Shown here piece after piece: positions 4,235-43,714 of a stretch of DNA of 64,000 bases; position 1 is the stretch's first letter; every line of letters begins with the position of its first letter. The position numbers and the translations under genes are program-made. Source of the stretch: Caldilineales bacterium (GTDB taxonomy: Bacteria; Chloroflexota; Anaerolineae; J102); assembly GCA_037443945.1 (NCBI GenBank), contig JBBINH010000002.1:33644-97643 (forward strand). Reading direction: 5' to 3'. Under the pieces are notes generated by a model that was not told the DNA's origin, searched no databases, and saw nothing but the letters and a program-made list of their open reading frames with translations.

Positions 4235-5695
4235 ATGCAAACGTATAAACGGTTCTCTCTTTTTTCCTTCCGGTTGGCCATCGTCCTGGCCTTGCTGACC
4301 ATAGGCCTCACGACCGCCATGGCCCTGGCCGACGAGGCTACCCCACCCCAGGATAGCTCCCTTTTGCCCGAAAGGAATACCATCGAATTCGACGGACAGG
4401 TCATGGCCAGGCCTGTGGGCGGAGCCGTCGGCCTTTGGCAAATCGACGGCCGCAGCGTTATGGCGACGTCTGCCACCCGTTTTGTGCCCAATGCCGAGGC
4501 CATCCGGGTTGGTGATTGGGTTCGCGTGGTGGCCCGGAATCGCGGAGGCCAGCTTGTAGCCCAGCTTATCGCCAAAACCCGGCCCGTGCCGTTACCGACG
4601 GTGGCGGGACGTATCGAGGCCATGTCACCCACGCAGTGGACCATCGGCAGGACCGTCGTCCTGATCGACGCCAACACGCAGATTACCGGGGATCCTCCCG
4701 ATGTAGGCGATTGGGCCGTGGCTCAGGTGCGGCGGACAACGGCAGGTTGGCTGGCCGTGCGCATTCACGTGCGCGATGCCGGTCCTATCGTACCACCCCC
4801 ACCGCAACGCCTGATTCGGGGTCGTATCGAAGCCATCGGCGAGACCAGTTGGACCATCGGCAGGGTGGTGGTGTTTGTGGATGCCGGGACCCGGATCGAA
4901 GGTGATCATCCCGATGTGGGGGATTTTGCGATGGCCTGGGTTGTGTCCTCGCCGTCAGGGGAGCTGCTGGCCAGGCGTATTGTGGTCCGCGATGCATGGC
5001 CCGATAAGATCGTGCTGCGCGGGCAGGTGCTGGCCATAGACGAGGGAATATGGACGGTGCTGGTCGAGGATCAGGAGAAGACCGTCCTGACCGATGAGCA
5101 TACCCGTATTCTCGGTGACCCGACCGTGGGCGATTGGGTCGGCATCAAGGGCGTGCTCACGGGCGATGGTTCCGTCCTGGCCCATGTCATCGTGAAGTTG
5201 GCGGGCGTTTTCCCGAAGGTGAATTTCGCCGGGTTTGTGACGGCCATCCTGCCGAGTTCGCATGCGGCTGAGGCTTCTATTGTCGTCTGGGAAGTGACGG
5301 CTCCGGCCATGGGTGCCAAACCGGCCCAAACCTGGACCGTCCTTATCACCGAGGAGACGCGGAGCAACGTTGACCCGAAAGGGGTGACCGTGGGCACCTG
5401 GGTCAAGGGCAACGGCGACCGCCTGGACGACGGTCTGATTCAGGCCCGGAGTGTGCACGTGACGGCGCCTCCGCGGTTGCCTTTCCGGGGCGAAGTGACC
5501 ACGCAACCCGACCCCGGTGCACCGGATTTCCCCCAAGGGCTGTGGGTCATCGGCGGCACGAGCGTGTATGTGACGGCCCAAACCCGCATCGAGGGCCCTG
5601 TGCCCGAGCTGGGCCAACAGGCCGGCGGTTTCGGTCTTCTGCGATCCTCCGATGGCGCTCTCGATGCCTTGTTGTTGACGGTCCTGTCCCGCTGA
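4235..5695 (+). CDS. secreted protein built from tandem DUF5666-like repeats
   Basis: Signal peptide (AIVLALLTIGLTTAMALA). There are at least 5 internal repeats of a ~60-aa unit, e.g. 'GRIEAxxxTxWTIGRxVVxxDAxTxIxGDxPxVGDWAxAxV'. GGAGG lies 11 nt upstream of the ATG. An intrinsic terminator follows. Confidence 0.8.
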   Translation: MQTYKRFSLFSFRLAIVLALLTIGLTTAMALADEATPPQDSSLLPERNTIEFDGQVMARPVGGAVGLWQIDGRSVMATSATRFVPNAEAIRVGDWVRVVARNRGGQLVAQLIAKTRPVPLPTVAGRIEAMSPTQWTIGRTVVLIDANTQITGDPPDVGDWAVAQVRRTTAGWLAVRIHVRDAGPIVPPPPQRLIRGRIEAIGETSWTIGRVVVFVDAGTRIEGDHPDVGDFAMAWVVSSPSGELLARRIVVRDAWPDKIVLRGQVLAIDEGIWTVLVEDQEKTVLTDEHTRILGDPTVGDWVGIKGVLTGDGSVLAHVIVKLAGVFPKVNFAGFVTAILPSSHAAEASIVVWEVTAPAMGAKPAQTWTVLITEETRSNVDPKGVTVGTWVKGNGDRLDDGLIQARSVHVTAPPRLPFRGEVTTQPDPGAPDFPQGLWVIGGTSVYVTAQTRIEGPVPELGQQAGGFGLLRSSDGALDALLLTVLSR

Positions 5696-21985: not shown

Positions 21986-24499
21986 TCAAACGTTCTCGAT
22001 CAGGCTTTGCAGCCATTGCTTTTGTTTGCTCATCAGTTCGGCTGCTTCGGCCGGGGTCTGCGCCTCGACCACCACGTGCAAGAGCGCGCGATCGGGATCG
22101 GGACGGATGAGGGCCCAGTGATTGGCGTCGAAGAAGAGCTTGACACCGTCAACGGTCGAGGCCGTCAGCCATTCGGCCCGTTCGTTGGCCTGGCGCATGA
22201 CCCGGCCTTTGGCCTCCCACAGACAGGGGATGGTTTCGTGCAGCCAGACAAAGCGCGGCAGGGCATCCACCACTTCGCTCAGCGTGACCTGATGATGGGC
22301 CAGGTATTGCAACAGACGACCCAAGGCGAACAGACCGTCGGGCACGGGGTGCAGGACAGGGAAGATGAAATGACCGCTGCCGTCTATGGCCAGAGCGGCT
22401 TTGTGCTCGTTGGCCGTGGTCATCAAGGCCTGCGTATCCACTTTGGTGCGCACCAGACTGCCGCCATAACGGGCGGCCAGGTGATCCAAGATGGCGGGCA
22501 TGTCGATCGTAGCGGCAATGACGGCGTGGGGTTGCTCGCGCCAGACCAAATCGGCCATGGCGGCAGCCGCAAGCAGGGGATTCAGGACGCGACCTTGTTC
22601 GTCCACAAAGAAGACCTGGCTGCCGCTCACATCCAGGCGGGCCCCCAAGTTCAGACCCATAGCCTGCACGATTTTGCCCAGCCGTTCCATGCCGAGCTGC
22701 CATGCGTGCGGCGAGAGGGCCAACAGGTTGGGATCCGGCCGTTCGTTGAGGCCGACCACCTCCACGCCCAGTCGGCCCAGCAGTGGCTCCAGCACATCCA
22801 CGGTCGTGGCATGGGCATAATCGACGGCAATGGTCAGGTTGGCCTGACGGATCCGATCGGGGGTCAGGGCCTGCAGAAACGCTTCGCTGTAACGCTGCTC
22901 CACATCGGCCACATAGTCAATGGCTCCGATGTCGTCCGACTGGACGCGACGGAAGTCCTCGCGGAAAAACAGCCATTCGATTTCGCGCTCTGTTGTGCGG
23001 TCCAGATTGAGACCATCGGCTCCGATGAAGCGGATGTCCACCACCCGGCGGTCAAAGGGGGAGATGCGAACATGAACCCCGGCCACGGCCTCGGAAAAGC
23101 GGGTGAGAAAACGGGCTACCGGCATCGGTTGCGTGCGCAGGTCCCACACCTGCACCCCGGCAGCCGGCAATCCGGAGATGATGGCCCGTTTGAGCATGCG
23201 TGAGCTGGGATGGGGATCGCGATTGATGGTGACGATGCTGCCTTTGGGCAAAATGCTACCGAAGGCAACGCCTAGCTTGGCGGCAAATTCGGGGGTCAAA
23301 TCCACGTTGACCACCCCGGAAACGCCGAAACGACTGAACAACACGCGCCGACCGCGCGTGCCCCAAACGATGCTCTCGCGCACAAGCGCGCCGGGGTCGA
23401 CCTCTTTCCCCGGCCACAGCTTCACATTCGTGAACAGAATCGCATCCTCGCCGATGACACAGCGGTCGCCGATGACCACCCCCTCCTGGACGACAGAACG
23501 CGCCTTGAAGACGCATTGCCGACTGACCAGAGCGCCGTGGATTTGGGCGCCTTCGCCTACATAACAACCGCGCCACATCACCGTCTGCGAGAGCTGGGCA
23601 TGGCGGTCGATGACGGTATCATCGCGGATAACGGCCGGACCCTGGATCACGGCACCACTCTTGATCTGGACGTTGTTGCCCAGATAGACCGGTCCGACGA
23701 CCTGAGCATCGGGGGCAATCACGACGTTGTCCCCGACCCAGATATCGTCGGCGAGGGCTTTACCCAGGGGTTCATGCTCCATCCGATGCCGCAAGACGTC
23801 GGCATTGGCTTGCAGATAGGCAGCCGGAGTACCGATATCGCACCAGTATCCCTCCACCGGTAGGCCGTAAAGGGGACGTTGCGCGGCCAGCAACTGCGGG
23901 AAGAGGTCGCGGCTAAAGTCATACGGTTCGTTTTTTGGTACCTTGGCCAGCACACGGCTTTCGAGGACGTATATGCCGGTATTGACCAGATCGCTCACCA
24001 CATCGGCCCAGCCCGGCTTTTCGATAAACTGGGCGATACGGCCATCGGGTTCGGTGATGACCATACCGTATTCCAACGGGTTGGAACTGCGATGGAGCGC
24101 TACGGTAACCTCGGCGCCTCGTTGGCGATGGAACTCGATGAGGGGTTGCAAAACGATGTCGGTGGCCGCATCGCCGCTAACGACGACTACCGTCTCATCG
24201 GCGGCGAGATGACCGGAGGCATAGGCCAGGGCTACCCCCCCGGCAGTGCCTAAGGGCGTGTCTTCGATTTGATACTCGATGGTCACGCCTAGACTGCCGC
24301 TGTTGAGAAGGTAGTTTTGAAACCATTCCGCCTGGTGCTGAAGGGTAATGATGATTTCGTAAATGCCGTTTCGTTTCAACCAATCGATAATGTGGGCAAT
24401 GATCGGTTTGTTGACCAAAGGCAAAAGCGGTTTAGGACGATTGATCGTCAGGGGACGCAGGCGTGAGCCCTGGCCACCGGCCATCACAATAGCTTTCAT
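21986..24499 (-). CDS. bifunctional sugar-1-phosphate nucleotidylyltransferase / phosphohexomutase-like fusion protein
   Basis: The N-terminus 'MKAIVMAGGQGSRLRPLT' is an NTP-transferase. A left-handed beta-helix hexapeptide region follows. The C-terminal ~450 aa align to phosphomannomutase/phosphoglucomutase domains, but with 'HVRISPFD' where TASHNP is expected. The start is set at MKAIV (24499). Confidence 0.8.
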   Translation of the reverse strand: MKAIVMAGGQGSRLRPLTINRPKPLLPLVNKPIIAHIIDWLKRNGIYEIIITLQHQAEWFQNYLLNSGSLGVTIEYQIEDTPLGTAGGVALAYASGHLAADETVVVVSGDAATDIVLQPLIEFHRQRGAEVTVALHRSSNPLEYGMVITEPDGRIAQFIEKPGWADVVSDLVNTGIYVLESRVLAKVPKNEPYDFSRDLFPQLLAAQRPLYGLPVEGYWCDIGTPAAYLQANADVLRHRMEHEPLGKALADDIWVGDNVVIAPDAQVVGPVYLGNNVQIKSGAVIQGPAVIRDDTVIDRHAQLSQTVMWRGCYVGEGAQIHGALVSRQCVFKARSVVQEGVVIGDRCVIGEDAILFTNVKLWPGKEVDPGALVRESIVWGTRGRRVLFSRFGVSGVVNVDLTPEFAAKLGVAFGSILPKGSIVTINRDPHPSSRMLKRAIISGLPAAGVQVWDLRTQPMPVARFLTRFSEAVAGVHVRISPFDRRVVDIRFIGADGLNLDRTTEREIEWLFFREDFRRVQSDDIGAIDYVADVEQRYSEAFLQALTPDRIRQANLTIAVDYAHATTVDVLEPLLGRLGVEVVGLNERPDPNLLALSPHAWQLGMERLGKIVQAMGLNLGARLDVSGSQVFFVDEQGRVLNPLLAAAAMADLVWREQPHAVIAATIDMPAILDHLAARYGGSLVRTKVDTQALMTTANEHKAALAIDGSGHFIFPVLHPVPDGLFALGRLLQYLAHHQVTLSEVVDALPRFVWLHETIPCLWEAKGRVMRQANERAEWLTASTVDGVKLFFDANHWALIRPDPDRALLHVVVEAQTPAEAAELMSKQKQWLQSLIENV

Positions 24500-24950
24500 A
24501 AGGATCGATTTCCAGGGGAGGAGCAGATCAACAAGAGAGGGGCAAGGGATTTCTCGTCGGGTTATGGGAGTGGGCGACACTGCAAGCATAACACAAAACC
24601 GACCCGATCCCCGGAACGCACAGGGCGCGGTCGCGCCGAGGCGCTTTTTCTGTCGCAATCGGTCCGGTGTCGAAGTCCGAGGGAGCGCCTCGCAGGCCGA
24701 ACCGTGCGGATGCTTCTGTCGAGAAGACGGTTAGAAGCGACGACGCCTTTCATCCGGTGGGTTAAGGCTTGGCTCTCTTCTGTTCTCTGTGATACAAGTG
24801 CCCTGCTTCCTGCCGTGCGCAGGGAAAACGGCCTTCCCTCAGGAATCCCACGACCGCTTTGAACAGCCTGACCCCAACCGGACTCCGGGTCTACCGTCTC
24901 ACCCGCAAGGCCGGAGGTCGGGGCGTTCTTTCGTATGACGAGGATCATGT

Positions 24951-26402
24951 ATGAGCATTCAATTCGGTACGGACGGTTGGCGCGCCGTCATCAGCGATGA
25001 ATTCACCTTTGCCAATGTGCGACGGGTGGCTCAGGCCATTGCCGACTGGGTTCAGATCGAAGCCGAACGGCGTTCCTGGGATGGACGCCCGCTCGTGGTG
25101 GTAGGCTTCGACACTCGGTTTTTGTCCGACCGCTATGCGGCTGCCGTGGCCGAAGTCCTGGCCGGCAACGCCATCGGCGTCCTGCTATGCCGGCATTTTG
25201 CTCCCACCCCGGCCGTCTCCTACGCTATCGTGGCCCACCAGGCCATCGGCGGCGTCATGATTACGGCCAGCCATAACGCGCCACGCTACAACGGCATCAA
25301 GCTCAAGGCCGCTTACGGCGGTTCGGCCGGTTCGGCCGATGCCCGTCGGGTGGAGGCTCTGTTGGCGGCCCAGGAGCGTGAGGGCCGCAAACCGCGGGTG
25401 TTGGCTTTGACGACGGCCGAACAGCAGGGTTTAGTCGAGCGTTTTGATCCCTACCCCGCCTACGCCGATCACGTGCGTCGCCTGGTCGATCTGCAAGCCA
25501 TAGCACGCGCCCGGCTGCGTCTGGTTGTGGATGCCATGTACGGCGCCGGGATGGGCTACACCGACCGTCTGTTGGCCGAGGTCGGCATCGAACCCTTACG
25601 GTTACACCACGAGCTCAATCCCGGTTTCGGCGGTTTGCATCCTGAACCTATCGCCCGCCATCTGCACGCGCTATGCAGTTGCATGGGAAACGGCAAGTTT
25701 GATTTGGGTCTGGCGACCGACGGGGATGCCGACCGTATCGGCGCTGTGGGACCCAACGGCCGTTTTGTGGATCCCCATCGCATTATGGCCCTCGTTCTCG
25801 ATGACATGCTCCGGCGCGGGCAGCGAGGAGACGTGGTCAAGACGGTCAGCACGACGCAAATGCTCAATCTCTTGGCCGAACCCTACGGTTTGACCGTGCA
25901 CGAAACCCCGGTTGGTTTCAATCATATCTCCGAGCTGATGCTGAAGGGCGATGTCCTTATCGGCGGTGAGGAATCCGGGGGCATTTCCGTGCGGCATCAC
26001 ATTCCCGAAGGGGATGGTGTGCTGATGGGGCTGCTGCTGGCCGAGATCGTGGCCCGTAACGGCGGTGACATCCAGGCCCTGATCGGGGCGATCATGGCAC
26101 GGGTAGGCCGTTTTGTCTACGCCCGCCACGATTATCGCGTGCAGCCCTTTGCCAAGACCGAACTGATTCAGCGCTTGATCGCCACCGCACCGACTCGATT
26201 AGCCGATCACGAGGTGGTCGGTTTGAACGCGCGGGATGGGGTCAAATACGTGCTCGATGATCAGAGCTGGCTGCTCATCCGACCTTCGGGCACCGAGCCC
26301 GTGCTGCGGGTGTATGCCGAAGCACGCGATGAGGAGGAGCTGCAGCAGCTGCTGAGCGAAGGCACCCGCCTAACCGGCTATTCGGACGCCGACCTGACCT
26401 GA
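24951..26402 (+). CDS. phosphoglucomutase/phosphomannomutase (alpha-D-phosphohexomutase)
   Basis: The canonical active-site loop TASHNAPRYNG, the metal-binding DGDADR and the GEESGG sugar-binding loop are present. Confidence 0.9.
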   Translation: MSIQFGTDGWRAVISDEFTFANVRRVAQAIADWVQIEAERRSWDGRPLVVVGFDTRFLSDRYAAAVAEVLAGNAIGVLLCRHFAPTPAVSYAIVAHQAIGGVMITASHNAPRYNGIKLKAAYGGSAGSADARRVEALLAAQEREGRKPRVLALTTAEQQGLVERFDPYPAYADHVRRLVDLQAIARARLRLVVDAMYGAGMGYTDRLLAEVGIEPLRLHHELNPGFGGLHPEPIARHLHALCSCMGNGKFDLGLATDGDADRIGAVGPNGRFVDPHRIMALVLDDMLRRGQRGDVVKTVSTTQMLNLLAEPYGLTVHETPVGFNHISELMLKGDVLIGGEESGGISVRHHIPEGDGVLMGLLLAEIVARNGGDIQALIGAIMARVGRFVYARHDYRVQPFAKTELIQRLIATAPTRLADHEVVGLNARDGVKYVLDDQSWLLIRPSGTEPVLRVYAEARDEEELQQLLSEGTRLTGYSDADLT

Positions 26403-28681: not shown

Positions 28682-29722
28682 TTAGAGTTTATGAAGAGTC
28701 CGTAACTCGGTGATAAGGCCGGCTACTCCACGCGAAGGCATCGGGGCCGGTCCAAAGGGGTCGGAAATAGGAGCGGCGGGGTCTTCCAGGAGGCGCAGCG
28801 TGTTGAGGATGGCGTGGGGGAGGACTTCCAGGTCATACCCTCCTTCGAGGACGATGACCAGTCGCCCTTGACATAGTTCAGCGGCCAAAGCACATACCTG
28901 GCGTGTCAGAAGGGCATAGCCGGCCAGGCTCAGTTGTTCCATGGCCAGGGGATCGCGCCAGTGCGCATCATAGCCGGCCGATACCAGGATGAGATCAGGC
29001 CGAAAGCGACGGGCAAAGGGCACGAGCAGGCTCGTAAACACCTGTTCGTAGCCCTCATCCCCGACCCCTGGCGGTAAGGGCACGTTCAACGTCGTCCCCT
29101 GTCCGGGACCACGGCCGATGTGATGGGCCGCGCCGGTGCCCGGATAGAAGGGGTATTGATGGGTTGAGAAAAAGGCGACGGTGGGATCGTCGTCAAAAAT
29201 GGCTTCGGTGCCGTTGCCGTGGTGGACGTCCCAATCCACGATCAGCACGCGCTCGATCCCGAATTCCCGCTGCGCTACGCGGGCAGCTACGGCGACATTG
29301 GCGAACAGACAAAAGCCCATGGCCCGTGCGGGCAGGGCGTGGTGTCCTGGCGGCCGCATGAGCGACATCCCGTTGCGCACCTCGCCGGTCAGAACGGTGG
29401 CTACCAGGTTGACGGCAGCGCCCACGGCGGCCAGGGCAGCTTCGTAGGAACCGGCGACGACGTAGGTGTCGGGATCGAGATGACCGCCGCCACTGCGCGC
29501 CAGGCGCGCGACGTGGTCGATGTAAGACCGCGGATGGACGTGTTGTAAGCGTTCCAGACTGACCGGTGTGACCGGAATGGCCCGTAACCGTGTCAGGATG
29601 CCGTCTTGCTGAAGAAGCCGCATCGTGCCGGCCAGACGACGGCGGTTTTCCGGGTGTCCGGCCAGGGTGTGCTGTTGCTCGATAGGGTCATACGCGTAAG
29701 CTGTCGTCACGGATGGGATCAT
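28682..29722 (-). CDS. histone deacetylase-family protein (acetoin utilization AcuC/HDAC-like)
   Basis: 'DWDVHHGNGTE' and 'GGGGY' HDAC motifs are present. The start is set at MIPSVTTAYAYD. Confidence 0.85.
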   Translation of the reverse strand: MIPSVTTAYAYDPIEQQHTLAGHPENRRRLAGTMRLLQQDGILTRLRAIPVTPVSLERLQHVHPRSYIDHVARLARSGGGHLDPDTYVVAGSYEAALAAVGAAVNLVATVLTGEVRNGMSLMRPPGHHALPARAMGFCLFANVAVAARVAQREFGIERVLIVDWDVHHGNGTEAIFDDDPTVAFFSTHQYPFYPGTGAAHHIGRGPGQGTTLNVPLPPGVGDEGYEQVFTSLLVPFARRFRPDLILVSAGYDAHWRDPLAMEQLSLAGYALLTRQVCALAAELCQGRLVIVLEGGYDLEVLPHAILNTLRLLEDPAAPISDPFGPAPMPSRGVAGLITELRTLHKL

Positions 29723-30211
29723 ACAATCGGCGGATGCCGGTTGCCAAAACGAAGGCATCCACAGACAAGGACGGCGGGTTGTACGCCGGTCCGGCAGGGG
29801 CCATGGACAAACCGTTCACCCGTAGGCCGTGTTGGTCGGACAGGGTATTCCGTGTGTTCCCGATGTTACAACCCTCGTGCCCAACTTTTACAGCCGCGCC
29901 GTGGTCGTGGTATCATAATAAAGCTACTATACCCAAGACCTTCAGGGCAGGGTGAGCGTTGATGCCGGTTCTTCCGGTGTTGGCGCAATTCCCGACCGGC
30001 GGTAAGGCAGGCTTGCCTGCCGAGCCCGCGAGCGGCCTCGGCCCATCCTCCTCCCAGGAAAGGGCATAGCGCCGGCGCCATACTCACAAGGCGCCATCGT
30101 GCCGAGGTGTCAGCAGATCCGGTGCAAAGCCGGAGCCGACGGTACAGTCCGGATGGGAGAAGGTCGTGTTCCGCAGGCATCTTGCGCGAGATGCCCGTCT
30201 GCGTTTGCACG

Positions 30212-30246
30212 CGGCGATCAGGCACGACCTGGTCGCCGTTTTTTTT
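30212..30246 (+). terminator. intrinsic terminator/attenuator immediately upstream of the ABC transporter operon
   Basis: GGCGATCAGG-cacgac-CCTGGTCGCC is a 10-bp stem with one G.U pair, followed by GTTTTTTTT. It ends 16 nt before the permease ATG. No + strand gene lies upstream. Confidence 0.6.
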
Positions 30247-30262
30247 GACAACCGGTGAAACG

Positions 30263-31135
30263 ATGCGTCAACAAACCCGACTTTTGAACCCGCTTCCTGC
30301 CGTTGATATTGTGGAAGGGCCACCTCCGGCCCCGGCCATAGACAAGCTGTCTCGGTGGCTGGTTAATGAGCGTCGCCTGCGGATCGGTCGCGCCCTTGTC
30401 GCCGTGGGGACCGTGCTGCTCTTCCTTGTGGTCTGGGAGGGCCTGGTGACCTGGCAGGCCTATCCGAGTTTTATCCTGCCGCGGCCGTTGGAGGTGTGGC
30501 TAAAGTTCCGGTTGATGGTGATGGATGGTAGCCTGGGGCGCCATCTAAGCATCACGTTGGTCGAAATCCTTCTGGGACTGGCGCTGGGATTGGGCACGGC
30601 GGCGGTGTTGGGTTATGTCCTGGCCAAATCGGTGGCGTTGGAGCGATTGCTGGCGCCTTATATCGTGGCGTTGCAGTCGTTTCCGATTATTGCCATTGCC
30701 CCTTTGTTGGTCATCTGGATTCGCGATGGCTTACTGCGCACCGTCCTGATCTGTGCGCTCACGCTCTTTTTCCCGGCATTGGTCAATACCATTGTGGGGC
30801 TGCGCAGCGTGGAACCGGAGCTGTTGGCGTTGATGCGTTCCTTGCGGGCCACCCGCTGGCAGCTTTTCACCCGGTTGGAGGTGCCTGCGGCCTTGCCGGT
30901 GCTCTTCGGGGGGATGAAGGTCGGGACCACCCTGGCCGTGATCGGGGCCGTGATCGGCGAATTCGTGGGCTCCGATCGGGGATTGGGCTTTCTCATCAAT
31001 CTGGCCCGGGGTTTGCTCGATACGCCCATGCTGTTTGTGGCGCTTTTTACGCTTGTGGCTATCGCTTTGGCTTTGTATGGCTTTGTCAGTCTGCTGGAAT
31101 ATCGGCTACTGGCTTGGCGCCGGTTGAGTGGCTAG
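30263..31135 (+). CDS. ABC transporter permease (NitT/TauT family)
   Basis: Six TM segments and an EAA-like loop are present. The start is set at MRQQTRLLNP, with GGTGA upstream. Confidence 0.85.
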   Translation: MRQQTRLLNPLPAVDIVEGPPPAPAIDKLSRWLVNERRLRIGRALVAVGTVLLFLVVWEGLVTWQAYPSFILPRPLEVWLKFRLMVMDGSLGRHLSITLVEILLGLALGLGTAAVLGYVLAKSVALERLLAPYIVALQSFPIIAIAPLLVIWIRDGLLRTVLICALTLFFPALVNTIVGLRSVEPELLALMRSLRATRWQLFTRLEVPAALPVLFGGMKVGTTLAVIGAVIGEFVGSDRGLGFLINLARGLLDTPMLFVALFTLVAIALALYGFVSLLEYRLLAWRRLSG

Positions 31136-31174
31136 TTCCCGGATTATCACGCTCAAATCTCCAGGAGGTTATTC

Positions 31175-32182
31175 ATGCATCGGTTGTTCTTTGTCGTGCT
31201 CAGCCTTTCCCTGCTCGTTGCCGGTTGTGCGGCGCCGGCCTTACCGGCGGCGCCGGCGGCTACACCCACGCCTACGGCCGTCAAACTGGGGTTGGGTTAC
31301 ATTCCCAGCGTTCAGTTTGCGCCCTTTTATGTGGCTATCGAGAAGGGTTATTTCGCCCGCGAGGGCATCAACGTCGAGTTGGAGCACGGGTTTGAAACGG
31401 ATTTTCTCAAGCTGCTCGGCACGCATGAGCGTCAGTTCATCATCGCCAGCGGCGAACAGACGATTATCGGCCGCAGCCAGGGCTTGCCTGTAACGTATGT
31501 GGCGGCCTGGTATCGGCGGTTTCCGGTCGTGCTTTTTGCACCGGCGGATAAGGGCATCGCCGCGCCTGCGGACCTGGCCGGCAAACGGGTTGGGATTCCC
31601 GGTTTGTTCGGTGCCAGCTATGTGGCCTGGAAAGCCCTGGTCCTGGCGGCCGGCGTACCGGAGGACCGGGTGACGTTGGAGAGCATCGGCTTCACGCAGG
31701 CAGCCGCCGTCAGCGAGGGCTTGGTCGATGCCGCTCTGGATTACACGGTAAACGGACCGGTGCAGTTGCGGCTGGCCGGTCGCAAGGTAGTCGAGATCGC
31801 CGTCGATGATTACATGGCGATTCCCTCGAACGGCCTGGTGACCAACGAAGCCACCATCGCCGCTCAACCAGAGCTGGTCGAGGGCATGGTGCGGGCCATC
31901 CTCTCCGGGATTCGCTACACCCTTGATCATCCGGACGAGGCCTTTGCTATCAGCCTCAAGTTCGTCCCCGAAGCGGCTCAACAAGAGGCGGTCAATCGCG
32001 CCATTTTCGATGCCTCGTTGGCCCTGTGGCAACCGGGCGAGGGCGAGCGGCTGGGGTTCACCGACCCGGCTATCTGGCCACCGACGGCAGAATTCATGCT
32101 GCAGGCCGGATTGATCGATCGCCCCGTGGCGACCGACGGCATCTGGACGAATCGCTTTGTCGAGGCGGCTAACGTGCCATGA
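31175..32182 (+). CDS. ABC transporter substrate-binding lipoprotein (NMT1/THI5-like)
   Basis: Lipobox LLVAGC. An NMT1/THI5-like periplasmic binding fold is present. Confidence 0.85.
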   Translation: MHRLFFVVLSLSLLVAGCAAPALPAAPAATPTPTAVKLGLGYIPSVQFAPFYVAIEKGYFAREGINVELEHGFETDFLKLLGTHERQFIIASGEQTIIGRSQGLPVTYVAAWYRRFPVVLFAPADKGIAAPADLAGKRVGIPGLFGASYVAWKALVLAAGVPEDRVTLESIGFTQAAAVSEGLVDAALDYTVNGPVQLRLAGRKVVEIAVDDYMAIPSNGLVTNEATIAAQPELVEGMVRAILSGIRYTLDHPDEAFAISLKFVPEAAQQEAVNRAIFDASLALWQPGEGERLGFTDPAIWPPTAEFMLQAGLIDRPVATDGIWTNRFVEAANVP

Positions 32183-32952
32183 GTCCGCTTTTGGAATTAC
32201 GCCATGTCAGCAAGGCATACGGCGACCCGGCCGATCCGCTCCATGCCCTGCACGATATCTCGTTTCGGGTCGAACGAGGCGAGTTCGTGTGCATGGTCGG
32301 GCCTAGCGGCGGCGGCAAGTCCACGTTGCTCCGCCTGATCGCGGGTTTGCTCCGACCCACGGCTGGTGAGATTTGGCTGGATGGCCGGCCGGTGCGCGAG
32401 CCCAGCCCACGGGTGGGCATCGTTTTTCAAAGCGTCAACCTGATGCCCTGGCGCACCGTGGTGGACAATGTGGCGTTGCCTTTGGAGCTGGCGGGAGTGC
32501 CGCGGCCCCAGCGTCAGAAGGTGGCCCTGGAGCTCCTCGATCTGATGGGATTGGCCGGATTTGCCAGGCGCTATCCCCGCCAGCTTTCCGGCGGCATGCA
32601 GCAGCGGGCGGCCATTGCCCGTACCCTGGCCCAGGACCCGGACTTGCTGCTCCTGGATGAGCCTTTCGGCGCGCTGGATGCCATCACACGCGAGTATCTG
32701 AATCGGGAGCTTTTGCGGATTCATCACCTGCGGAAGCAGACGATTTTCATGGTCACCCATGCGATAGGCGAGGCGGTGTTCCTGGCCGATCGGGTGCTGG
32801 TGTTATCGGCACGGCCGGGCACCCTCCGCTGCGAAATCCCCATCCCCTTGCCCCACCCGCGCGGGGAGGAGACCTTGAGCGATCCGACCTATGTGGCGCT
32901 GACGCAGCAGGTGCGGGCGGCTATCAGGGACAGTCAAGTGTTGGACTTCTGA
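32179..32952 (+). CDS. ABC transporter ATP-binding protein
   Basis: Walker A (GPSGGGKST), the signature LSGGMQQR and Walker B (LLLDEPF) are present. It has an ATGA overlap with the SBP gene. Confidence 0.9.
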
Positions 32953-33008: not shown

Positions 33009-33246
33009 TCTGGGGATGCCTGTGGTATCATCGCCAAGTTCCGGTGGCTGTCGGCGACGTTAACATTTTGTCATGCGCCTGACCTGAGCCATTCATGCCG
33101 TTTTCACCTCATTCCCCTAGAATGGCACTGCAGTGACGGCCATGGCGTAGCGAGATGGTTGTCTGCCCATGCCCCCGTCTTGCCGGGACGGTCAGCCCCC
33201 GCCGTCGCGGCAATCTTATCTCAAGCTTATGGAGGTACTTTGCATC

Positions 33247-35721
33247 ATGATGAGTAAGAAGGGGTTCCTTCTTCTCAGCACGGCGTTTATTGTCGTGACT
33301 TTGATGGCTTTTGCCGTGGCGGCTGACGAGCCGGTGCTTCCGCCGGTGGAGCCGACCACGGTCGCACCGGCCCAACCCGAAGCAAGTGATTATGCCCCTC
33401 CGCCGGCAGGACAGCCGGGCTTTTATATCGAGAACGGTCGTTTCAACATCTTGCAGCCGGCCCAGGCCTATTATGCGACCGGGTCGTTCGGTTTTTGGGC
33501 CTGGTCTTCCCTCAATCCAGCGCGAGGGAGTTACAACTGGGAGATCCTCGATACCTGGGTGGCCGACAGCATCGCTGCCGGCTATGAAACCGTCGGCATT
33601 GCCCTCAAAACCTATACCGGTCGTTTTGTGGGATGCCAGTTTCAGGGCATCGATATGACCCCGGCCTGGGTGCTGGCCGGTCAGGACGGTATCCGTGGCA
33701 ACGCCGACGATCCTGTCCTGTTGTCAAGTGTGCCGGATCGTCGTGATTGCGATAGGGATGGCAATCCCGATAACGGTCCCTGGTACCTGATCCAGTACAA
33801 CCACCCTTACTACAAAAGCAACTACATTGCCTTCATCAACGCGTTGGCCGACCATTTGTTCAGCGCGCCTTATCGCGACCGGGTGGCCTGGGTGGCCATC
33901 GGCACGGGCAAGGATGGTGAGAACAAACCGGCCGATGATGACGACGATCCCACCTTGCTGGCCAACGGTCTTAGCACCGAGGCCTGGATCTTGCATGTCC
34001 AGGAGATTATCGAGACGTATCGCGCAGCGTTTTACGATGGGTCGGGATTCCCGCGCATTCAACTCGTCTTGCAGAATGCGCCCTTTTATCGCAGCCCCAT
34101 CGAGCGGCGCGACCTGGCCAATTACGCGGCCACGCGGCGGATTGGGCTTTCCATCAACAACATTACGTCCGATTTCAACTCGGTTGAATCATGCGCCAGT
34201 CCCAATTCGAACACGCGTTGCACGGGCATCTACGATCAGGCGCGGCAATACAACAGCATTGCTCCGATCATGCTGGAAAGCTACGCGTACATGATGCCCA
34301 CACCCAACGAGTTTTACTGGTCCATGGCGCGCGCGCTGGATGTCAGGGCCGACTACATCCGCCTTTCCAGTTTCTGGAATACCCAGACCAATCCCGACAA
34401 TTTGACCACGGCCGAATGGGCCAGCCGTTACATCGGGACGGGCTTCGCCGAAGGCCAGCGCCGACCGCCCAGCGTGTGGTCGCGCATGCGAGAGCATAAA
34501 GACCCCTGCTACCTGGGTTACGCCTTCATCAATCCCTGTAACTTCTGGCCGACCAACGGCAACTACGAGTTTTATCTCACCCAGCTCCACCTGCCCCAGT
34601 TCGGCGGTGTGACCATCCCCGTCACCGATGACGATCGCATCCGCATCACCGGCTGGGATCACAGCGAATCGAACGTGGTTGACAAGCGCTGGCACTACAA
34701 CACGAGTCCCTTTGACCAGAAATTGCGCGATGCCGGTCTTTTCGCCCTGACCCCCAGCGGTGTCCAGAATCAGGTCGATCCGGGGTGGGTGGCACGGCGT
34801 AGCGATCAGGCCACGAATAACACCAAGTTCATTTTCGACGCCGCCGATCGCTACTTTGCCCGCTCGCAGCCGCCGGCCGAAAGCACCTTCAAGGTCGTCA
34901 TCACCGTGACCTATCTGGATGTGGGCAACGACCAGTGGTTGCTGGTCTACGATTCGACGACAGGGCCCAGGGCGGCCACGGTGTACGCCATCAACGATTG
35001 GAATGTGCGCCGTGGATTGGCCGTGGACGACTTTTTACCGGTAGATGGCCGTGTCCTGCCTCCGGTCAATTACGTCCAGAAGACCGGAACGAATCGCTGG
35101 AAGGTGGCGACCTTCGTCATCGAGGACGGCAACTTTAACAACCTGGTGCTCAACGAGGCCCGTGCCGACTTTTACATCGAATCCCGCAGTCCCAGCGGCC
35201 AGAAGGACGGCGATGAGTACATCCACCACGTGGATGTGCGCAAGGTGGACGAATTTATCGAAGTAACACCGACGCCGACGCCGACCACGGCGCCGACGGC
35301 CACGCCCACGCCGACGGCCACACCGATGCCGACGGCCACGCCCACGCCTACCGCCACCCCGACGCCCACACCCTCCACCGGCAGCATCGTCGGCAAGGTC
35401 TATTACGATCGCAACCAGAACCGTCAGCCCGATCCCGGCGAGGGTTTGGCCGGCGGTGTGTTGGTCCTGAGCGGTCCTACCCATGCGCAGACCACCTCGG
35501 CGGTAGACGGCTCGTATGGCTTCCATGCCTTGCCGCCCGGTAGCTACGTGCTACGTTCGACGCCGCCGGCAGGCTACAACCGGGCCGATCCCGACACGGT
35601 GGCGCTTTTCGTCCAGGCCAATACCATCTTGACCTGGGACTTTGCCCACGAACCTCTACCGGATACGACGCCTTCGCCTCCCGCAGGCGAGCCCCTCTAT
35701 CTGCCGCTGTTACGGCGTTAG
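33247..35721 (+). CDS. secreted GH42-like TIM-barrel (glycoside-hydrolase-like) protein with Thr/Pro linker and C-terminal SdrD B-like domain; ends in YLPLLRR
   Basis: Signal peptide MMSKKGFLLLSTAFIVVTLMAFAVA. 'WAWSSLNPARGSYNWEILDTWV' resembles the GH42/GH35 N-terminal barrel signature (W..EP..G.Y.W..LD). It is paralogous to the N-terminal ~600 aa of the giant protein. A TPTPTP linker and 'VYYDRNQNRQPDPGE...GSYGF' SdrD-B domain follow. Confidence 0.75.
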   Translation: MMSKKGFLLLSTAFIVVTLMAFAVAADEPVLPPVEPTTVAPAQPEASDYAPPPAGQPGFYIENGRFNILQPAQAYYATGSFGFWAWSSLNPARGSYNWEILDTWVADSIAAGYETVGIALKTYTGRFVGCQFQGIDMTPAWVLAGQDGIRGNADDPVLLSSVPDRRDCDRDGNPDNGPWYLIQYNHPYYKSNYIAFINALADHLFSAPYRDRVAWVAIGTGKDGENKPADDDDDPTLLANGLSTEAWILHVQEIIETYRAAFYDGSGFPRIQLVLQNAPFYRSPIERRDLANYAATRRIGLSINNITSDFNSVESCASPNSNTRCTGIYDQARQYNSIAPIMLESYAYMMPTPNEFYWSMARALDVRADYIRLSSFWNTQTNPDNLTTAEWASRYIGTGFAEGQRRPPSVWSRMREHKDPCYLGYAFINPCNFWPTNGNYEFYLTQLHLPQFGGVTIPVTDDDRIRITGWDHSESNVVDKRWHYNTSPFDQKLRDAGLFALTPSGVQNQVDPGWVARRSDQATNNTKFIFDAADRYFARSQPPAESTFKVVITVTYLDVGNDQWLLVYDSTTGPRAATVYAINDWNVRRGLAVDDFLPVDGRVLPPVNYVQKTGTNRWKVATFVIEDGNFNNLVLNEARADFYIESRSPSGQKDGDEYIHHVDVRKVDEFIEVTPTPTPTTAPTATPTPTATPMPTATPTPTATPTPTPSTGSIVGKVYYDRNQNRQPDPGEGLAGGVLVLSGPTHAQTTSAVDGSYGFHALPPGSYVLRSTPPAGYNRADPDTVALFVQANTILTWDFAHEPLPDTTPSPPAGEPLYLPLLRR
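35266..35375 (+). repeat. Thr/Pro-linker coding low-complexity repeat (ACNCCN)n
   Basis: Reiterated ACG CCG ACS CCS units encode [37 protein letters not shown]. Confidence 0.8.
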
Positions 35722-38737: not shown

Positions 38738-41700
38738 TTGCGTCTGTTCCTGGGTATCCGTCCGATGTCCCCCTCTCGTTCGTCGCGACGCCTGGTTTTC
38801 CTTTTCCTTGCCATCGGGTTGATCGTGGTGGTGATCGGTGGGGTTGGCCTGCTTTGGTGGCGGTGGTGGCGCCCGCCATCCCCTGTCCCCTCACCCACCG
38901 CTATCGTAACGACCACACCGACGCCGGCTATGCCATCCACACCGACGCCGACCCTAACGCCCACGCCGACGCCGGTAGCGACCGAAGTTGCTGCTCAGGT
39001 GGTGTTTGGCTCGCTGCAGCCGGGGGTGTACGAGGCCTATGATCATCTCAGTCGCGAGCCCGAACTGCGCGGGGGCACCCTGGAATTTCGTTGGAACCAG
39101 GTCGAACCTCTCCAGAACGGCTATAACTGGTCGGTCCTGGACCGGGCCTTGGCGCAACTTCCGACCGGACGCCGCGCCATCCTGCGCCTGATGGTGCGTT
39201 GCAACGAGGGCAACAACGAGGTCTGCACGCCGGATTGGGCGCTGCGCGACGAGTTCCGTCCCATCGTTGCCGCCGTGCCCCCGGCTTGTGGTCTAAGCGC
39301 AAGCACGCGAAAGCACTTGAACTATCTGGACGAGGGTGTCCAGCGCGAGCTTTTGGAGCTGATCCGCCTGTTGGGCCAACGGTACAATGCCGATCCGCGG
39401 GTGACGGCCGTGGAAGTCGGCGTGGGTTATAACGGTGAATCGTCGCCGTGGCCGTTGACCACGCTCTGCGACAAGGAGGCCCAACGCAGCGCTTACGAGG
39501 CCGCCTACGGCCCTACAGGACCGCGACAATGGGCGGATTGGCATCTCCGCCAGCTAGAGGCCTATACGGCCGCTTTCCCGGATCAGACGTTGCTCACCAT
39601 CATCACCGGGGATTACGCCGAGGCCGAGCGCTGGCGGGTGGTGCAGTGGGCCGTGGAGCACGGGGTGGGGCTGATGGTGACCTCGCTGGTGGCCGACTAT
39701 CATAGCAATCGCGGCAAAAGCGGCGATTTTTGTTTTTGGGGTGCCATCACGCGGCCGAGAGCAGCTCCCAGCGCCACCCTGGCCAATGCCTACCTCACCC
39801 AATGGGCGGCCTTGGACCACGTGTGGGAACAGGTCCCTATCGGTTTTGAGTTCAATAACGCCTCAAGCTTGATCGGCCTCGGTATCGAGGCCCACACCTG
39901 GTGGTCGGCCCTTAATGCTCTGGACAAACATGCCGATATCATCGAACCGTTTCGGGCCAACACCCGCCAAACTGCGGTTTGGCGTTTTGTCAATGCCTAC
40001 ATCGGCCAGACGGCCGGCACCACACCGGCGGTCTGGATTGTTTTCCGCAGCAGCAATCCCGCTCTGCCTGACGCCCAATGCGGCGATCTGTTCGATTACT
40101 CGTTTTTCCTCATCCATGAATTGGAGAGGCTGGGGTACGATACCCTCCTGCAGCAACAAAGCGTGCGTCGGGCCGATGCCTTGACACGACGTTTCCAGAT
40201 CGGCCCGGCTACCGATTGGCGCGGGGCTTATGCTCGTGAAACGGCCGACGGATGGCCGGTTTTCAACCTCGATGTCGATGATACGTTCAGCAGGCGCCTC
40301 GGCGGTGCGGTTGAGGTCGTCGTCACCTATTTCGATCATGCCAACGGCGGGCGTTGGGCGCTCGATTACGATAGCCTCACCGGTCCGCGTCGGGCCGGTG
40401 AAGTCGTGCTGACGGGGACCAACACCTGGCGAGAGCAGGTTTTCCGGTTGAACGATGTCCGCTTCGGCAACGGTTTGCCCAAAATGCAGGCCGATAGCCG
40501 TCGGACGGGTTTTGATCTGCGTCTGGACCGGGTGGACGGAACGAACGATAGCTTCCATCGGGTCCTGGTGCGGCCTGTGGGGACGATTCCCCTGATGAGC
40601 CCCACACCACGACCAGGCCGGACACCAACGCCTTCTGCCCCCACACCGACGCCGCAGTCGCCTTTCTACTTTCGCTTCCGACAGGGGATCGACGAGTACC
40701 GAGGCGTGCGCGATACGTTTATCGAGGCCTTTCAGCCCGACGTTGCGCGTGCCAACGAGCCGCTGTTGGGCGTGCGACCTCTCGACCGAGCTGCTGCCTT
40801 GCTGTATTTCGACCTCGGTCGTCTTCCTCCGGATGCCCTTGTCCATCGGGCCTATCTCTATCTGACGCGGCTGGCGCCGGCCGATCAAACCGTCACCCTG
40901 ACCCTCTATCGGTTGTTGCGGTCCTGGAGCGAGATGGCGACCTTCCGCCAGGCCGATACCGACAGCCCCTGGGAGCAGCCGGGTGCTCTCGGCCTGAGCG
41001 ATGCCGCTTCCAACCCCGTGGCCGGGCCGCTACCGGTTGCCCCCGGCGCCGTGGCCCGCTTCGATGTGACCGCCCTGGTCCAGAGTTGGATCGCCGATCC
41101 GATGCTCAATCAGGGCCTGATCGTGCGGGGTGACAGCAACGTTGCGCGACGATACGAGTTTGCCAGCAGCGAAAACCCTACACCGGTTTGGCGGCCGTAT
41201 CTGGAAATCCTTCTAGAAACGCCGACGCCCACGCCAACCCGCACGCCCACCCCGACGCCCACCCCGACTGCCACGCCTACGGCCACAGCCACGCGTACGC
41301 CGACCTCGACCCGCACGCCCACATCCACCCCGACCCCCACCCCCAGTCCCACCGCTACGCCGACGCCGACCCCCACACCGGCCGTACGCCTGCGCGAGGA
41401 GACGGTCTTGCGTCGCGGGCCTGGCTTCAATTTCGATGGACTCGCCACGGCAGCTGCCGACACCGTCCTTCCGCTGCTGGGACGCAGCGCCGACGGCGAT
41501 TGGCTGGCCGTCTGTTGCGTAGGAACCGATCCGGCCTGGGTACCCGGCATGAATGCCGAGGTGTTGCACATCACAACGGAGGCTTTGCCCATCATTAGCT
41601 CGCCACCGACGCCCACACCGACGCCTACGCATACACCGACCCCCACACCCTCGCCGACACCGTCACCGACGGCCACCGCAACGGCGACGCCCACGCCCAC

Positions 41701-43714
41701 GCCGACAGCCACCCCTACGCCCACGCCCACACCCACCGCCACGATAACCCCCACGCCGACGGCTGTGGTACCGGCCTGTCTGCCGTTTCGCCTGTTCGTG
41801 CTCGATATCGGCACCCAACCCAAAGGCGTGGCCGTGGGTAGCCTGGCCGATGGTACCGTCGTGACCGGCATCGGTCTGTACGAAAGCGCTGCTTTGGCTC
41901 TGGTCGTCGGCGATGAGGTCCGCATGATACCCACCGACGGTCGGGGCGCCAACGGTGTGGCGTTTGCCAACGGGCGGTTTTACATGGTCCATCGCGATAG
42001 CCGCAGCGTCAGCATCATCGACCCGGTGGCAGGCCGACAGGTGGGCCGTCTTCCGACGGGTCGGGAACCGTGGGGCGCGGCCGCCACTGCCGACAGGCTC
42101 TATGTGGCCGATTTTGCCGACGACACGGTGAGCGTCTTTGACCTGAATGACGAACAGCTCGTGGTCAGGGTGCCGGTCGCTCCGCTACCGGCCTTTGTGG
42201 CGGCAGCAGCCGATCGGGCGTTCGTGGCCCATCTCGGCGGTCAGATCAGTGTCATCGGTCCGGAGGGCGAGGTGCTTGCCGTTTTCGGACCCCTTATCGG
42301 CGGCGATGCGTTCGGTCTGGCCTACGACGCCGTCCACGATCGGCTGTGGGCGGGAAGCCGTCAGGCGCGCAGCCTGTTGGCCCTCGACGCCAGAACGGGC
42401 GTTGTTCAGGCCCGCTATCTTCTCCCGGCCGCACCGTATGCCGTGGCCTATAATCCGGCGACCGATCAGGTGTTGGCCGTGGATGCCGTTCACAATCGGC
42501 TGATGATCGTCCAGGCAGCCGACGGCGAGCTGCTAGGCCTCTTGCCGCTCAGCACCCAGGGTAGCGATCACGGCGGCCAGGGGCTGGCCGTATCCGCCAA
42601 CCGGATTTTCGTCCCCGCTTTTGCAGCAGGAGCGCTGGACGGTTTCGACGGTGGACCGTGTGTCACACCGACGCCAACGCCGACATCCACTCCTACCCCC
42701 ACGCGCACGCCGACCCCCACACGCACCCCGCGCGTGCGCACGCCGACCCCCACACGCACATCGACTCCGACACCGACCATCACGCCTACGGTTACACCGA
42801 CGGCCACACCCACGCCGACATCGACGCCAACCGTCACAGCGACGCCGACGGCCACGTTTACGCCGAGCCCCACACCCACGCCGACGCCGGCCACGCTTAT
42901 CGCCAAGATTCAAATCGTCTGGCCTCACGGCGGTGCTGCCGTGACCGAGGCCGAGCGGGCGAACATCACCGTCCATCTCTACGAAGACGAGGCTCTGAAC
43001 CCGGTGGTGTGTGACTTCGCCGCCACGGTGCGGTTATGGGCGGCGCGCAACAATGAACCGGCACGTCCCGTTGCCGTCGGTCAGCCTCGTCTGACCGAGC
43101 AGGACGGTCGGCGCTTTACCGTCTGGGATTTCAACGACATCGATGTCGCTGCAGCCCGCGATCCCCGCACTAAACTTCACTTCTTCGTGACCGTGGATGG
43201 CTTCGAGACGCGACACAACGTCTGGACCCATGGCGCCGATGCTCGTACCCTGGCACCTGTCCAGGATATCCCCACCGCCGTGTTGACGACGCTGCCCTCT
43301 GCCCTTGACGCACGCATCGAGATCGTCTGGCCTCACGGTGGCCGAGCGGTAAGCGAAGCTCGACTGGCCAATATCACCGTCTATCTCTTCCGCCGGGATA
43401 CCCTGGAAGCCCTGGGGCCTTCGGTGCGGCCGTTGCCGACGGTCCGTCTGCACAGGGCGCACAACAACGAGCCGGACGGCGGCCGCGCGGCGGCGCCGAT
43501 CGGTATCCCCCGGACCATCACGGCCCAGGGTCGGACCTGGCTGGTCTGGGATTTCAACGATGTGGATGTGGCTGCGGCCAACGATCCGCAGAATCGTATC
43601 TATTTCTGGGTGGATACGGATGAAGTGCCGACGGCGACGAACATCTGGACCCATGGCGTGCTCGGCCTCACGCGGGCGCCGATACAGGATGTGCCGGCCC
43701 GCAGTTGTCGGTGA
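38738..43714 (+). CDS. giant secreted multidomain protein (1658 aa): GH42-like TIM barrel + beta-sandwich + DNRLRE-like domain + TP linkers + YVTN-type beta-propeller + two tandem C-terminal ~135-aa repeats
   Basis: Signal anchor ([23 protein letters not shown]). '[24 protein letters not shown]' is the barrel signature. It is a paralogue of the 33247..35721 N-terminal region (shared ...YDS(L/T)TGPR... block). '[22 protein letters not shown]' is the DNRLRE-like module. About 7 YVTN-like ~40-aa repeats are present (e.g. [28 protein letters not shown]). The C-terminal duplicated unit is 'I(E/Q)IVWPHGG...ANITV(H/Y)L...WDFND(I/V)DVAAA.DP...(F/Y)F(F/W)V..D...T..N(V/I)WTHG'. The real start may be ATG 38765 (MSPSRSS...). 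Confidence 0.8.
38911..38985 (+). repeat. Thr/Pro-linker coding low-complexity repeat
   Basis: Encodes [25 protein letters not shown]. Confidence 0.7.
41218..41384 (+). repeat. Thr/Pro-linker coding low-complexity repeat (ACGCCSACSCCC)n
   Basis: Encodes [54 protein letters not shown]. Confidence 0.85.
41601..41762 (+). repeat. Thr/Pro-linker coding low-complexity repeat
   Basis: Encodes [53 protein letters not shown]. Confidence 0.85.
42663..42897 (+). repeat. Thr/Pro-linker coding low-complexity repeat (longest, ~235 nt)
   Basis: Encodes [77 protein letters not shown]. Confidence 0.85.

Follow-up and report, generated by a model that had tools for sequence, protein, structure and literature searches.

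The long leader upstream of an NMT1/THI5-type ABC transporter operon contains an RNA that, judged by its sequence, is an FMN riboswitch aptamer with a canonical pocket. We propose, with a probability of about 0.9, that it acts as a canonical FMN riboswitch controlling, by OFF-type transcription attenuation, what would be the riboflavin ABC importer (ribXYZ) of a bacterium from a Caldilineales-like lineage of the Chloroflexota. Its features are collected in the table, with positions counted in the window, i.e., the whole 64,000-nt stretch of DNA that was analysed.

Features of the leader, its upstream flank, and the downstream operon
Feature	Position	Strand	Details
Hist_deacetyl family gene	28682-29758	-	Pfam; upstream neighbour of the leader
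Sigma-70-like promoter (predicted)	29887-29916	+	-35 TTTACA 29887-29892, 18-nt spacer, -10 TATCAT 29911-29916
FMN riboswitch aptamer (RFN element, RF00050)	29934-30168	+	Full length, model positions 1-138 of 138
P1	29937-29943 / 30159-30165	+	RF00050 alignment
P2	29950-29952 / 29991-29993	+	GGG / CCC; T-loop cap UGA...AAUU interrupted by inserted hairpin
P2a, inserted hairpin	29956-29986	+	31 nt, 13 bp, loop UUCUU, -19.8 kcal/mol
P3	29999-30002 / 30026-30029	+	Usual T-loop-interrupting helix P3a at 30006-30021; alignment and fold
P4 domain	30032-30114	+	Basal stem 30035-30041 / 30102-30108 and two internal hairpins (predicted, read by eye)
P5 T-loop hairpin	30118-30122 / 30130-30134	+	RF00050 alignment
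P6	30140-30142 / 30149-30151	+	Follows J5/6; RF00050 alignment
Switching sequence AGGUCGUGUU	30161-30170	+	First 5 nt lie in the P1 3' strand; proposed antiterminator 5' strand
Spacer hairpin GGCAUCUU-GCGC-GAGAUGCC	30176-30195	+	8 bp, between aptamer and terminator; predicted fold
Small alternative hairpin	30196-30204 / 30209-30216	+	Nascent-transcript fold, antiterminated conformer
Intrinsic terminator	30211-30246	+	5' arm 30211-30222, loop CACGA 30223-30227, 3' arm 30228-30239, U8 30239-30246
Antiterminator target GGCACGACCU	30221-30230	+	Proposed antiterminator 3' strand
ribX-like ABC permease, NitT/TauT type	30263-31135	+	BPD_transp_1, E 2.8e-27; Pfam
ribY-like periplasmic/lipoprotein substrate-binding protein	31175-32182	+	NMT1/THI5-like PF09084, E 8.7e-46
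ribZ-like ABC ATPase	32179-32952	+	Overlaps ribY stop codon by 4 nt

FMN riboswitches, or RFN elements, are exemplified by those of B. subtilis ribD and F. nucleatum impX and by the structure PDB 3F2Q. When the whole 64-kb window was searched with cmscan at the gathering threshold, the FMN family RF00050 was the only Rfam match, with 89.3 bits as compared to a gathering score of 66.2 (E 4.6e-19); a TPP riboswitch (RF00059), the class suggested in a preliminary description of this DNA, did not reach its gathering score anywhere in the window. A permissive cmscan of 29800-30320 (E<=1) again returned FMN alone (E 3.8e-21), with no match to TPP, SAM, or ZTP. The Rfam search that the preliminary description had proposed as a check thus gave a clear match. 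Its view of the leader as a riboswitch whose final hairpin and U8 form the expression-platform terminator is borne out by the RF00050 match and by the terminator being conserved in orthologues. Its caution in leaving the class open was justified, and the class can now be given as FMN; its leaning toward TPP and thiamine has to be given up. The string it had likened to the TPP P4/P5 helix, placed at ~30108-30130, is GATCCGGTGCAAAGCCGGAG at 30116-30135, which in the FMN alignment falls on J4/5 and the T-loop hairpin of P5.

As in the RF00050 class at large, six helices (P1-P6) meet in a junction built of consensus nucleotides, and P2, P3, and P5 carry T-loops. All upper-case consensus positions of the junction are matched (UUCAGGGCAGGGUG, CCCGACCGGCGGUAA, GAGCCCGCGAGC, GCAGAUCCGGUG, CCGGAGCCGACGGUA, and AGUCCGGAUGGGAGAAGG), and mismatches of the aptamer to the consensus are confined to the L5 loop and to one closing pair each of P1 and P4. 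A T-loop is defined by two G-C closing pairs, U...A, GNR, and two 3' bulged nucleotides, with interruption by a helix being optional (PMC2258182). Here, the caps read U-GA[hairpin]A-A-UU in L2 and UGCAAAG in L5, and L3 is interrupted by P3a. The aptamer stands directly upstream of ribXYZ homologues, which provides the flavin-gene association of the class. The RNA passes every RF00050 membership test that can be run in silico, and the leader, with a fold z-score of -3.5 in addition to the E value of the aptamer, is structured well beyond chance.

To follow the element across genomes, we fetched the 80 best genome loci with a profile of the binding protein. Of the first 20 loci, 11 have an FMN aptamer ahead of the operon according to the Rfam models, and a core-motif search found the element in 59 of the 80 orthologous Chloroflexota loci, always on the coding strand; in 10 of the 21 FMN-negative loci, the sequence available upstream is shorter than 1.3 kb. 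In MAGs labelled Chloroflexia, two loci whose homologues share 55-58% identity (L024 and L069) have the element as well. A stable hairpin followed by a U-run ends 54 of 60 FMN leaders, so that attenuation of transcription is the usual mode of control in the clade. Orthologous operons keep the aptamer as well as the terminator, the conservation by which the preliminary description had expected a genuine riboswitch to be recognized. A metagenome scan with the 18-mer GGATGRRAGAAGGTCGTG gave 120 matches, most of them without the 5' half of the FMN aptamer and probably due to chance; the useful ones were L175, L178, and L183 only. An Anaerolineae MAG has a 6S/SsrS RNA (RF00013, 74.9 bits; L014:1319-1509, + strand) about 1 kb ahead of its FMN riboswitch and ribXYZ genes.

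The aptamer is 235 nt long as compared to the 138 positions of the model because of two local insertions, one in the P2 loop (35 nt versus 4 in the RF00050 alignment) and one in P4 (73 nt versus 12). Thus, unlike a typical RF00050 member, it carries a 31-nt hairpin in the L2 T-loop and a 73-nt P4 extension, both at sites known to tolerate insertions (PMC2258182). The L2 hairpin, P2a, is placed exactly between UGA and AAUU and has its L3 counterpart in P3a. Among 62 aptamers parsed from orthologous Chloroflexota loci, 61 have an insert of 12-48 nt at the identical L2 site. The five basal pairs of P2a are Watson-Crick or wobble in 92% of cases as compared to 57% with shuffled partners (observed value reached by 0 of 1000 shuffles), and several pair types occur at each of these positions, i.e., they covary. 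P2a is therefore genuine and conserved as a helix. As a feature it is of a known kind, since its insertion site in the L2 T-loop was already described in 2007 (PMC2258182). In the solved FMN riboswitch structure, L2 docks on L6 (PMC3201879).

One relative, L175 (minus strand, aptamer ending near 5393-5493), has a canonical 7-nt L2, UGCAAUU, without the P2a hairpin. It is the only one that combines the conserved terminator and the GAAGGUCGUG switching sequence with an uninterrupted L2, which indicates that P2a is dispensable for this expression platform. P4 ranges from about 14 to 84 nt across orthologues, and its extension is lineage-specific. Within the extension, CCCAUCC (30041-30047) is perfectly complementary to GGAUGGG (30151-30157) of the conserved J6/1, and the two are paired in the fold computed with P1 blocked. 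As a candidate anti-aptamer pairing it was rejected: it is kept only in the close relatives L001 and L183 and is probably due to chance.

The predicted promoter matches the consensus at 10 of 12 positions and has an extended -10 TG at 29908-29909 (TGgTATCAT, 29908-29916). In the consensus scan of 29600-30400, it was the single promoter-like site on the + strand, and two sites were found on both strands together as compared to 0.3 expected. Orthologous leaders carry promoters of the type TTGAC-N17-TGnTATACT at an equal distance upstream of P1. Transcription is predicted to start a few nucleotides 3' of the -10 element, about 10-20 nt ahead of P1, and a non-coding leader of ~340 nt separates the promoter from the permease ATG at 30263, which stands 16 nt past the last T of U8. 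Promoter, leader, and terminator are all present where the preliminary description had placed them, with coordinates agreeing to within 1 nt. It had also remarked that no upstream gene on the + strand needs the terminator, and this is correct: because the upstream Hist_deacetyl family gene lies on the minus strand, the terminator serves no upstream gene. A divergent promoter-like site (TTGGCA-18-TATGAT, 10/12; 29718-29747, minus strand) falls within the first part of that gene's longest ORF, and the true start of the gene is therefore probably at a lower coordinate, downstream of 29758 on the minus strand.

The stem of the terminator comprises 12 pairs including G-U, 8 of them G-C, and it is the only terminator-like site that the consensus scan of the region found on the + strand. 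This type of expression platform, which like that of B. subtilis ribD is built on a terminator, was compared in 12 leaders (the window, L001-L004, L006-L008, L011, L175, L178, and L183). All share a terminator of the form GCGGCGAYCRGRCACGAYYYGRYCGCC-U(n). Its stem is 95% paired across the 12, three pairs show compensatory changes, and none of 500 shuffles reached the covariation score. The loop CACGA is invariant in the 12 leaders while the stem varies. An invariant loop is unusual for a terminator. The GUG directly following P1 (3 nt) is likewise invariant in the 12, though unpaired with the P1 5' side, and GAAGGUCGUG is invariant in all leaders of this platform (12/12).

These elements suggest an alternative pairing, which the preliminary description had looked to as the counterpart of the terminator. 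AGGUCGUG (30161-30168) is complementary to CACGACCU (30223-30230), and two G-U pairs lengthen the helix to 10 bp, joining 30161-30170 with 30221-30230. An 8-bp Watson-Crick match between the switching and target zones is reached by 0.26% of shuffles. The helix is kept in 12/12 leaders and is 99% paired, with both substitutions seen giving G-U. Compensatory changes in this helix were not found among the 12 sequences because it is invariant, and the invariance could partly reflect shared ancestry, the sequences being related. The proposed pairing differs from that of a typical FMN riboswitch in that its target is the terminator loop and the start of the 3' arm, not the body of the 5' arm.

With the P1 5' strand excluded, the antiterminator helix was the minimum free energy (MFE) structure of the nascent transcript in 9/9 orthologues. 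When the whole terminator was included, the antiterminated conformer was the MFE structure in 4/9 (L001, L002, L004, and L011), and in the window the antiterminated and terminated conformers were within 0.4 kcal/mol of each other (-42.4 versus -42.8 kcal/mol). Whole-leader MFE folds, either plain or constrained, always chose the terminator; folding of the full leader did not reveal the antiterminator, which emerged only when nascent transcripts were folded with the P1 5' strand omitted. Because full-length folds always give the terminator, the switch would have to be kinetic. An OFF switch driven by kinetics should indeed show the terminator at equilibrium, yet for the same reason the antiterminator is a structure that we infer.

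Orthologues have a hairpin at the position equivalent to that of the predicted spacer hairpin. The small alternative hairpin is present in the window, L001, and L004 but not in L008 or L011; according to the nascent-transcript fold, the antiterminated state may use it to sequester GCGGCG at the base of the terminator 5' arm. We rejected a general mimicry of the P1 5' strand and J1/2 by terminator 3' arms: over the whole set it is not significant, a match of at least 6 nt being found in 16 of 53 leaders (median shuffle p 0.25), and in the window the exact match to the P1 5' strand or J1/2 is only 5 nt. In five distant orthologues (L016, L054, L063, L065, and L078), 7-9 nt of the leader's own P1 5' strand and J1/2 recur in the terminator 3' arm, e.g., ACCTTCGGG. 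This suggests a different antiterminator geometry in these loci, with P1-5'/J1/2 as a possible partner of the terminator 5' arm.

On this basis, the switch would most likely work in the classical way, as follows. Transcription would begin just past the promoter. With FMN bound, P1 would be locked and the switching sequence withheld, so that the terminator hairpin (30211-30239) could form and RNA polymerase would be released at U8, before ribX is reached. With too little FMN, pairing would instead take place between the target and the P1 3' strand extended by the five nucleotides that follow it. The target consists of the last two nucleotides of the terminator 5' arm, the loop, and the first three nucleotides of the 3' arm. 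As most of this target (GGCACGA) is made before the terminator 3' arm, the antiterminator would nucleate first unless FMN locks P1. The small alternative hairpin (30196-30216) would also capture the base of the terminator 5' arm. Once the antiterminator had formed, the terminator would be precluded and ribXYZ would be transcribed.

The operon starts with the permease gene. Its longest ORF extends upstream to a GTG within the leader (30107); the closest orthologues, in turn, conserve the ATG at 30263 as the start (MRQQTRLLNPLPAVD in the window, identical in L183, and MNERARLLTPLPAVE in L001). The overlap of ribZ with ribY indicates that ribZ belongs to the same operon. The ribY-like protein has homologues of up to 93% identity among the best 120 listed, and the named ones among these are all from Chloroflexota MAGs (Caldilineae, Anaerolineae) but one, labelled Proteobacteria. 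Its best genome match, at 92% identity, is in the Caldilineales MAG L001. The best 120 homologues and the best 80 loci hold only relatives closer than C. aurantiacus RibY.

In all analysed Chloroflexi, ribXY operons, which are homologous to ThiXYZ, were found to be preceded by FMN riboswitches (Sun et al. 2013, PMC3766115). The C. aurantiacus ribXY genes rescue an E. coli ribB riboflavin auxotroph on low riboflavin (Gutierrez-Preciado et al. 2015, PMC4418817); the same study reported flavin binding by RibY and, in some Chloroflexi, a linked ribZ gene for an ATPase. It also reported that substrates in this family of transporters go with the type of leader RNA (FMN, TPP, T-box, or ykkC), an FMN leader being the criterion that separates RibXY orthologues from homologues regulated by TPP, T-box, or ykkC RNAs; the published orthology rule for RibY is >38% identity over >=80% coverage (PMC4418817). 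The operon described here has a COG0600-type permease gene adjacent to a COG0715/NMT1-type binding-protein gene on one strand, and its leader contains an FMN riboswitch. By its sequence, it conforms to the published operational definition of RibXY(Z).

Thus arranged, it resembles C. aurantiacus RibXY (Caur_0816-0817), which likewise combines a COG0600 permease with a COG0715/NMT1 protein in one operon behind an FMN leader in a member of the Chloroflexota (PMC3766115, PMC4418817), and it shares the ribZ ATPase with some Chloroflexi RibXYZ systems. It differs from the C. aurantiacus system in its host, an uncultured Caldilineales-like lineage, and in that the transporter is known here from sequence. 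From its homology to the C. aurantiacus system, which has been tested, we infer that this NMT1/THI5-type ABC system is probably a riboflavin importer, RibXYZ, and not an importer of HMP or thiamine precursors.

Two MAGs contain two NMT1-type loci each, L019 and L014 in JBAQCH01 and L030 and L037 in JBFYTD01, with 62-65% identity to the protein of the window. In both pairs, one copy has an FMN riboswitch and the other is without one within at least 3.3 kb upstream. The FMN-less paralogue may differ in substrate or in regulation, and family membership alone therefore does not fix the substrate. Pfam analysis of 16 ORFs around the locus of the window found no riboflavin biosynthesis genes nearby, and no tRNAs were found near it. 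Directly 3' of ribZ lies an 850-aa ORF (33169-35721, + strand) with only a sub-threshold SdrD_B-like match, followed by genes for a CBM96/disaggregatase-repeat protein, a sugar transferase, and a methyltransferase and by a 1658-aa ORF (38738-43714, + strand); this cluster looks like cell-surface or polysaccharide genes unrelated to the riboswitch. Elsewhere in the window, two modules are joined in an 890-aa ORF (21986-24658, minus strand), one of the NTP_transferase/hexapeptide (GlmU/GMP-like) type and one a complete phosphoglucomutase/phosphomannomutase, and a separate PGM/PMM gene is found at 24951-26402 (+ strand).

The family of the transporter could also bring to mind a ThiXYZ-type importer of HMP or thiamine precursors under the control of a TPP or another non-flavin riboswitch. 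With its NMT1/THI5-like binding protein, the system shares its transporter family and operon layout with the ThiXYZ/ThiY HMP-FAMP importer, and the solved structure nearest to the binding protein is the FAMP-binding, i.e., thiamine-pyrimidine-binding, ThiY (3ix1, E 6e-22), a relation at the family level only. Moreover, some Proteobacteria homologues of this transporter family stand behind TPP riboswitches (PMC4418817). At the RNA level, such a reading is refuted: TPP gave nothing even in the permissive scan of 29800-30320 in which FMN was detected, the TPP-like helix belongs to P5 of the FMN aptamer, and orthologous operons carry FMN elements. The regulatory RNA, the literature's discriminator of substrate in this family, is FMN here, unlike in ThiXYZ systems under TPP control, and we regard a TPP-type switch as extremely improbable. 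An FMN-like variant aptamer of altered specificity, responding to riboflavin, lumichrome, or another flavin derivative in the manner of subtypes 1 and 2 of C. difficile and possibly by means of the L2 and P4 insertions, is only slightly less remote. Such variants share the FMN-like fold, are detected by the RF00050 model, and occur with transporter genes (PMC6298564), and the peripheral insertions of the present aptamer are unusual. Subtypes 1 and 2, however, are defined by G-to-A changes at positions contacting the phosphate or the ribityl chain and are ON switches before efflux pumps (PMC6298564). In the aptamer studied here, the junction is FMN consensus throughout, and the absence of these changes marks the pocket as canonical; the downstream genes encode a homologue of importers and not an efflux pump, and the insertions lie in peripheral loops, at sites where helices are known to be tolerated (PMC2258182).

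A further reading concedes an FMN riboswitch but assigns it mainly translational control, or takes the hairpin and U8 for an attenuator that is constitutive and independent of the aptamer. The lack of covariation in the antiterminator and the presence of the terminator in all whole-leader MFE folds would be in keeping with it. In contrast, the weak SD sequence GGUGA (30254-30258) lies downstream of the terminator and takes part in no conserved helix, the terminator loop and the post-P1 GUG are not only invariant but complementary in 12/12 leaders, the two conformers are nearly isoenergetic, and terminators are used by the large majority of the clade's leaders (54/60). We thus consider this reading highly unlikely, if marginally less so than a variant aptamer, and retain FMN-dependent transcription attenuation of ribXYZ as the preferred one.

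An FMN riboswitch before a riboflavin importer of Chloroflexi is an arrangement already known, described and tested in that group, and the near-universal P2a, the long branched P4, and the loop-aimed antiterminator are variations at sites, or on principles, already described. The riboswitch does not challenge current understanding. We consider it unlikely that the FMN riboswitches of Chloroflexota ribXYZ operons form a distinct structural subclass, in which L2 is almost always interrupted by a helix and P2a mirrors P3a in symmetric peripheral domains, with the subclade of the window adding an antiterminator that invades the terminator loop. An effect of P2a on L2-L6 docking, if there is one, could influence how fast the ligand binds, how thermostable the aptamer is, or which flavins it selects, unlike in the Firmicute and Fusobacterium aptamers studied. 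The clade-wide, covarying L2 helix and the invariant loop complementary to the P1 3' strand provide natural examples of known design principles, and P2a and the loop-complementary platform could guide constructs for structural work on large FMN aptamers. The main value of the finding lies in annotation: the FMN riboswitch accounts for the 340-nt leader, and the genes at 30263-32952 would be those of a flavin-repressed riboflavin importer rather than of a thiamine-precursor, sulfonate, or nitrate transporter.
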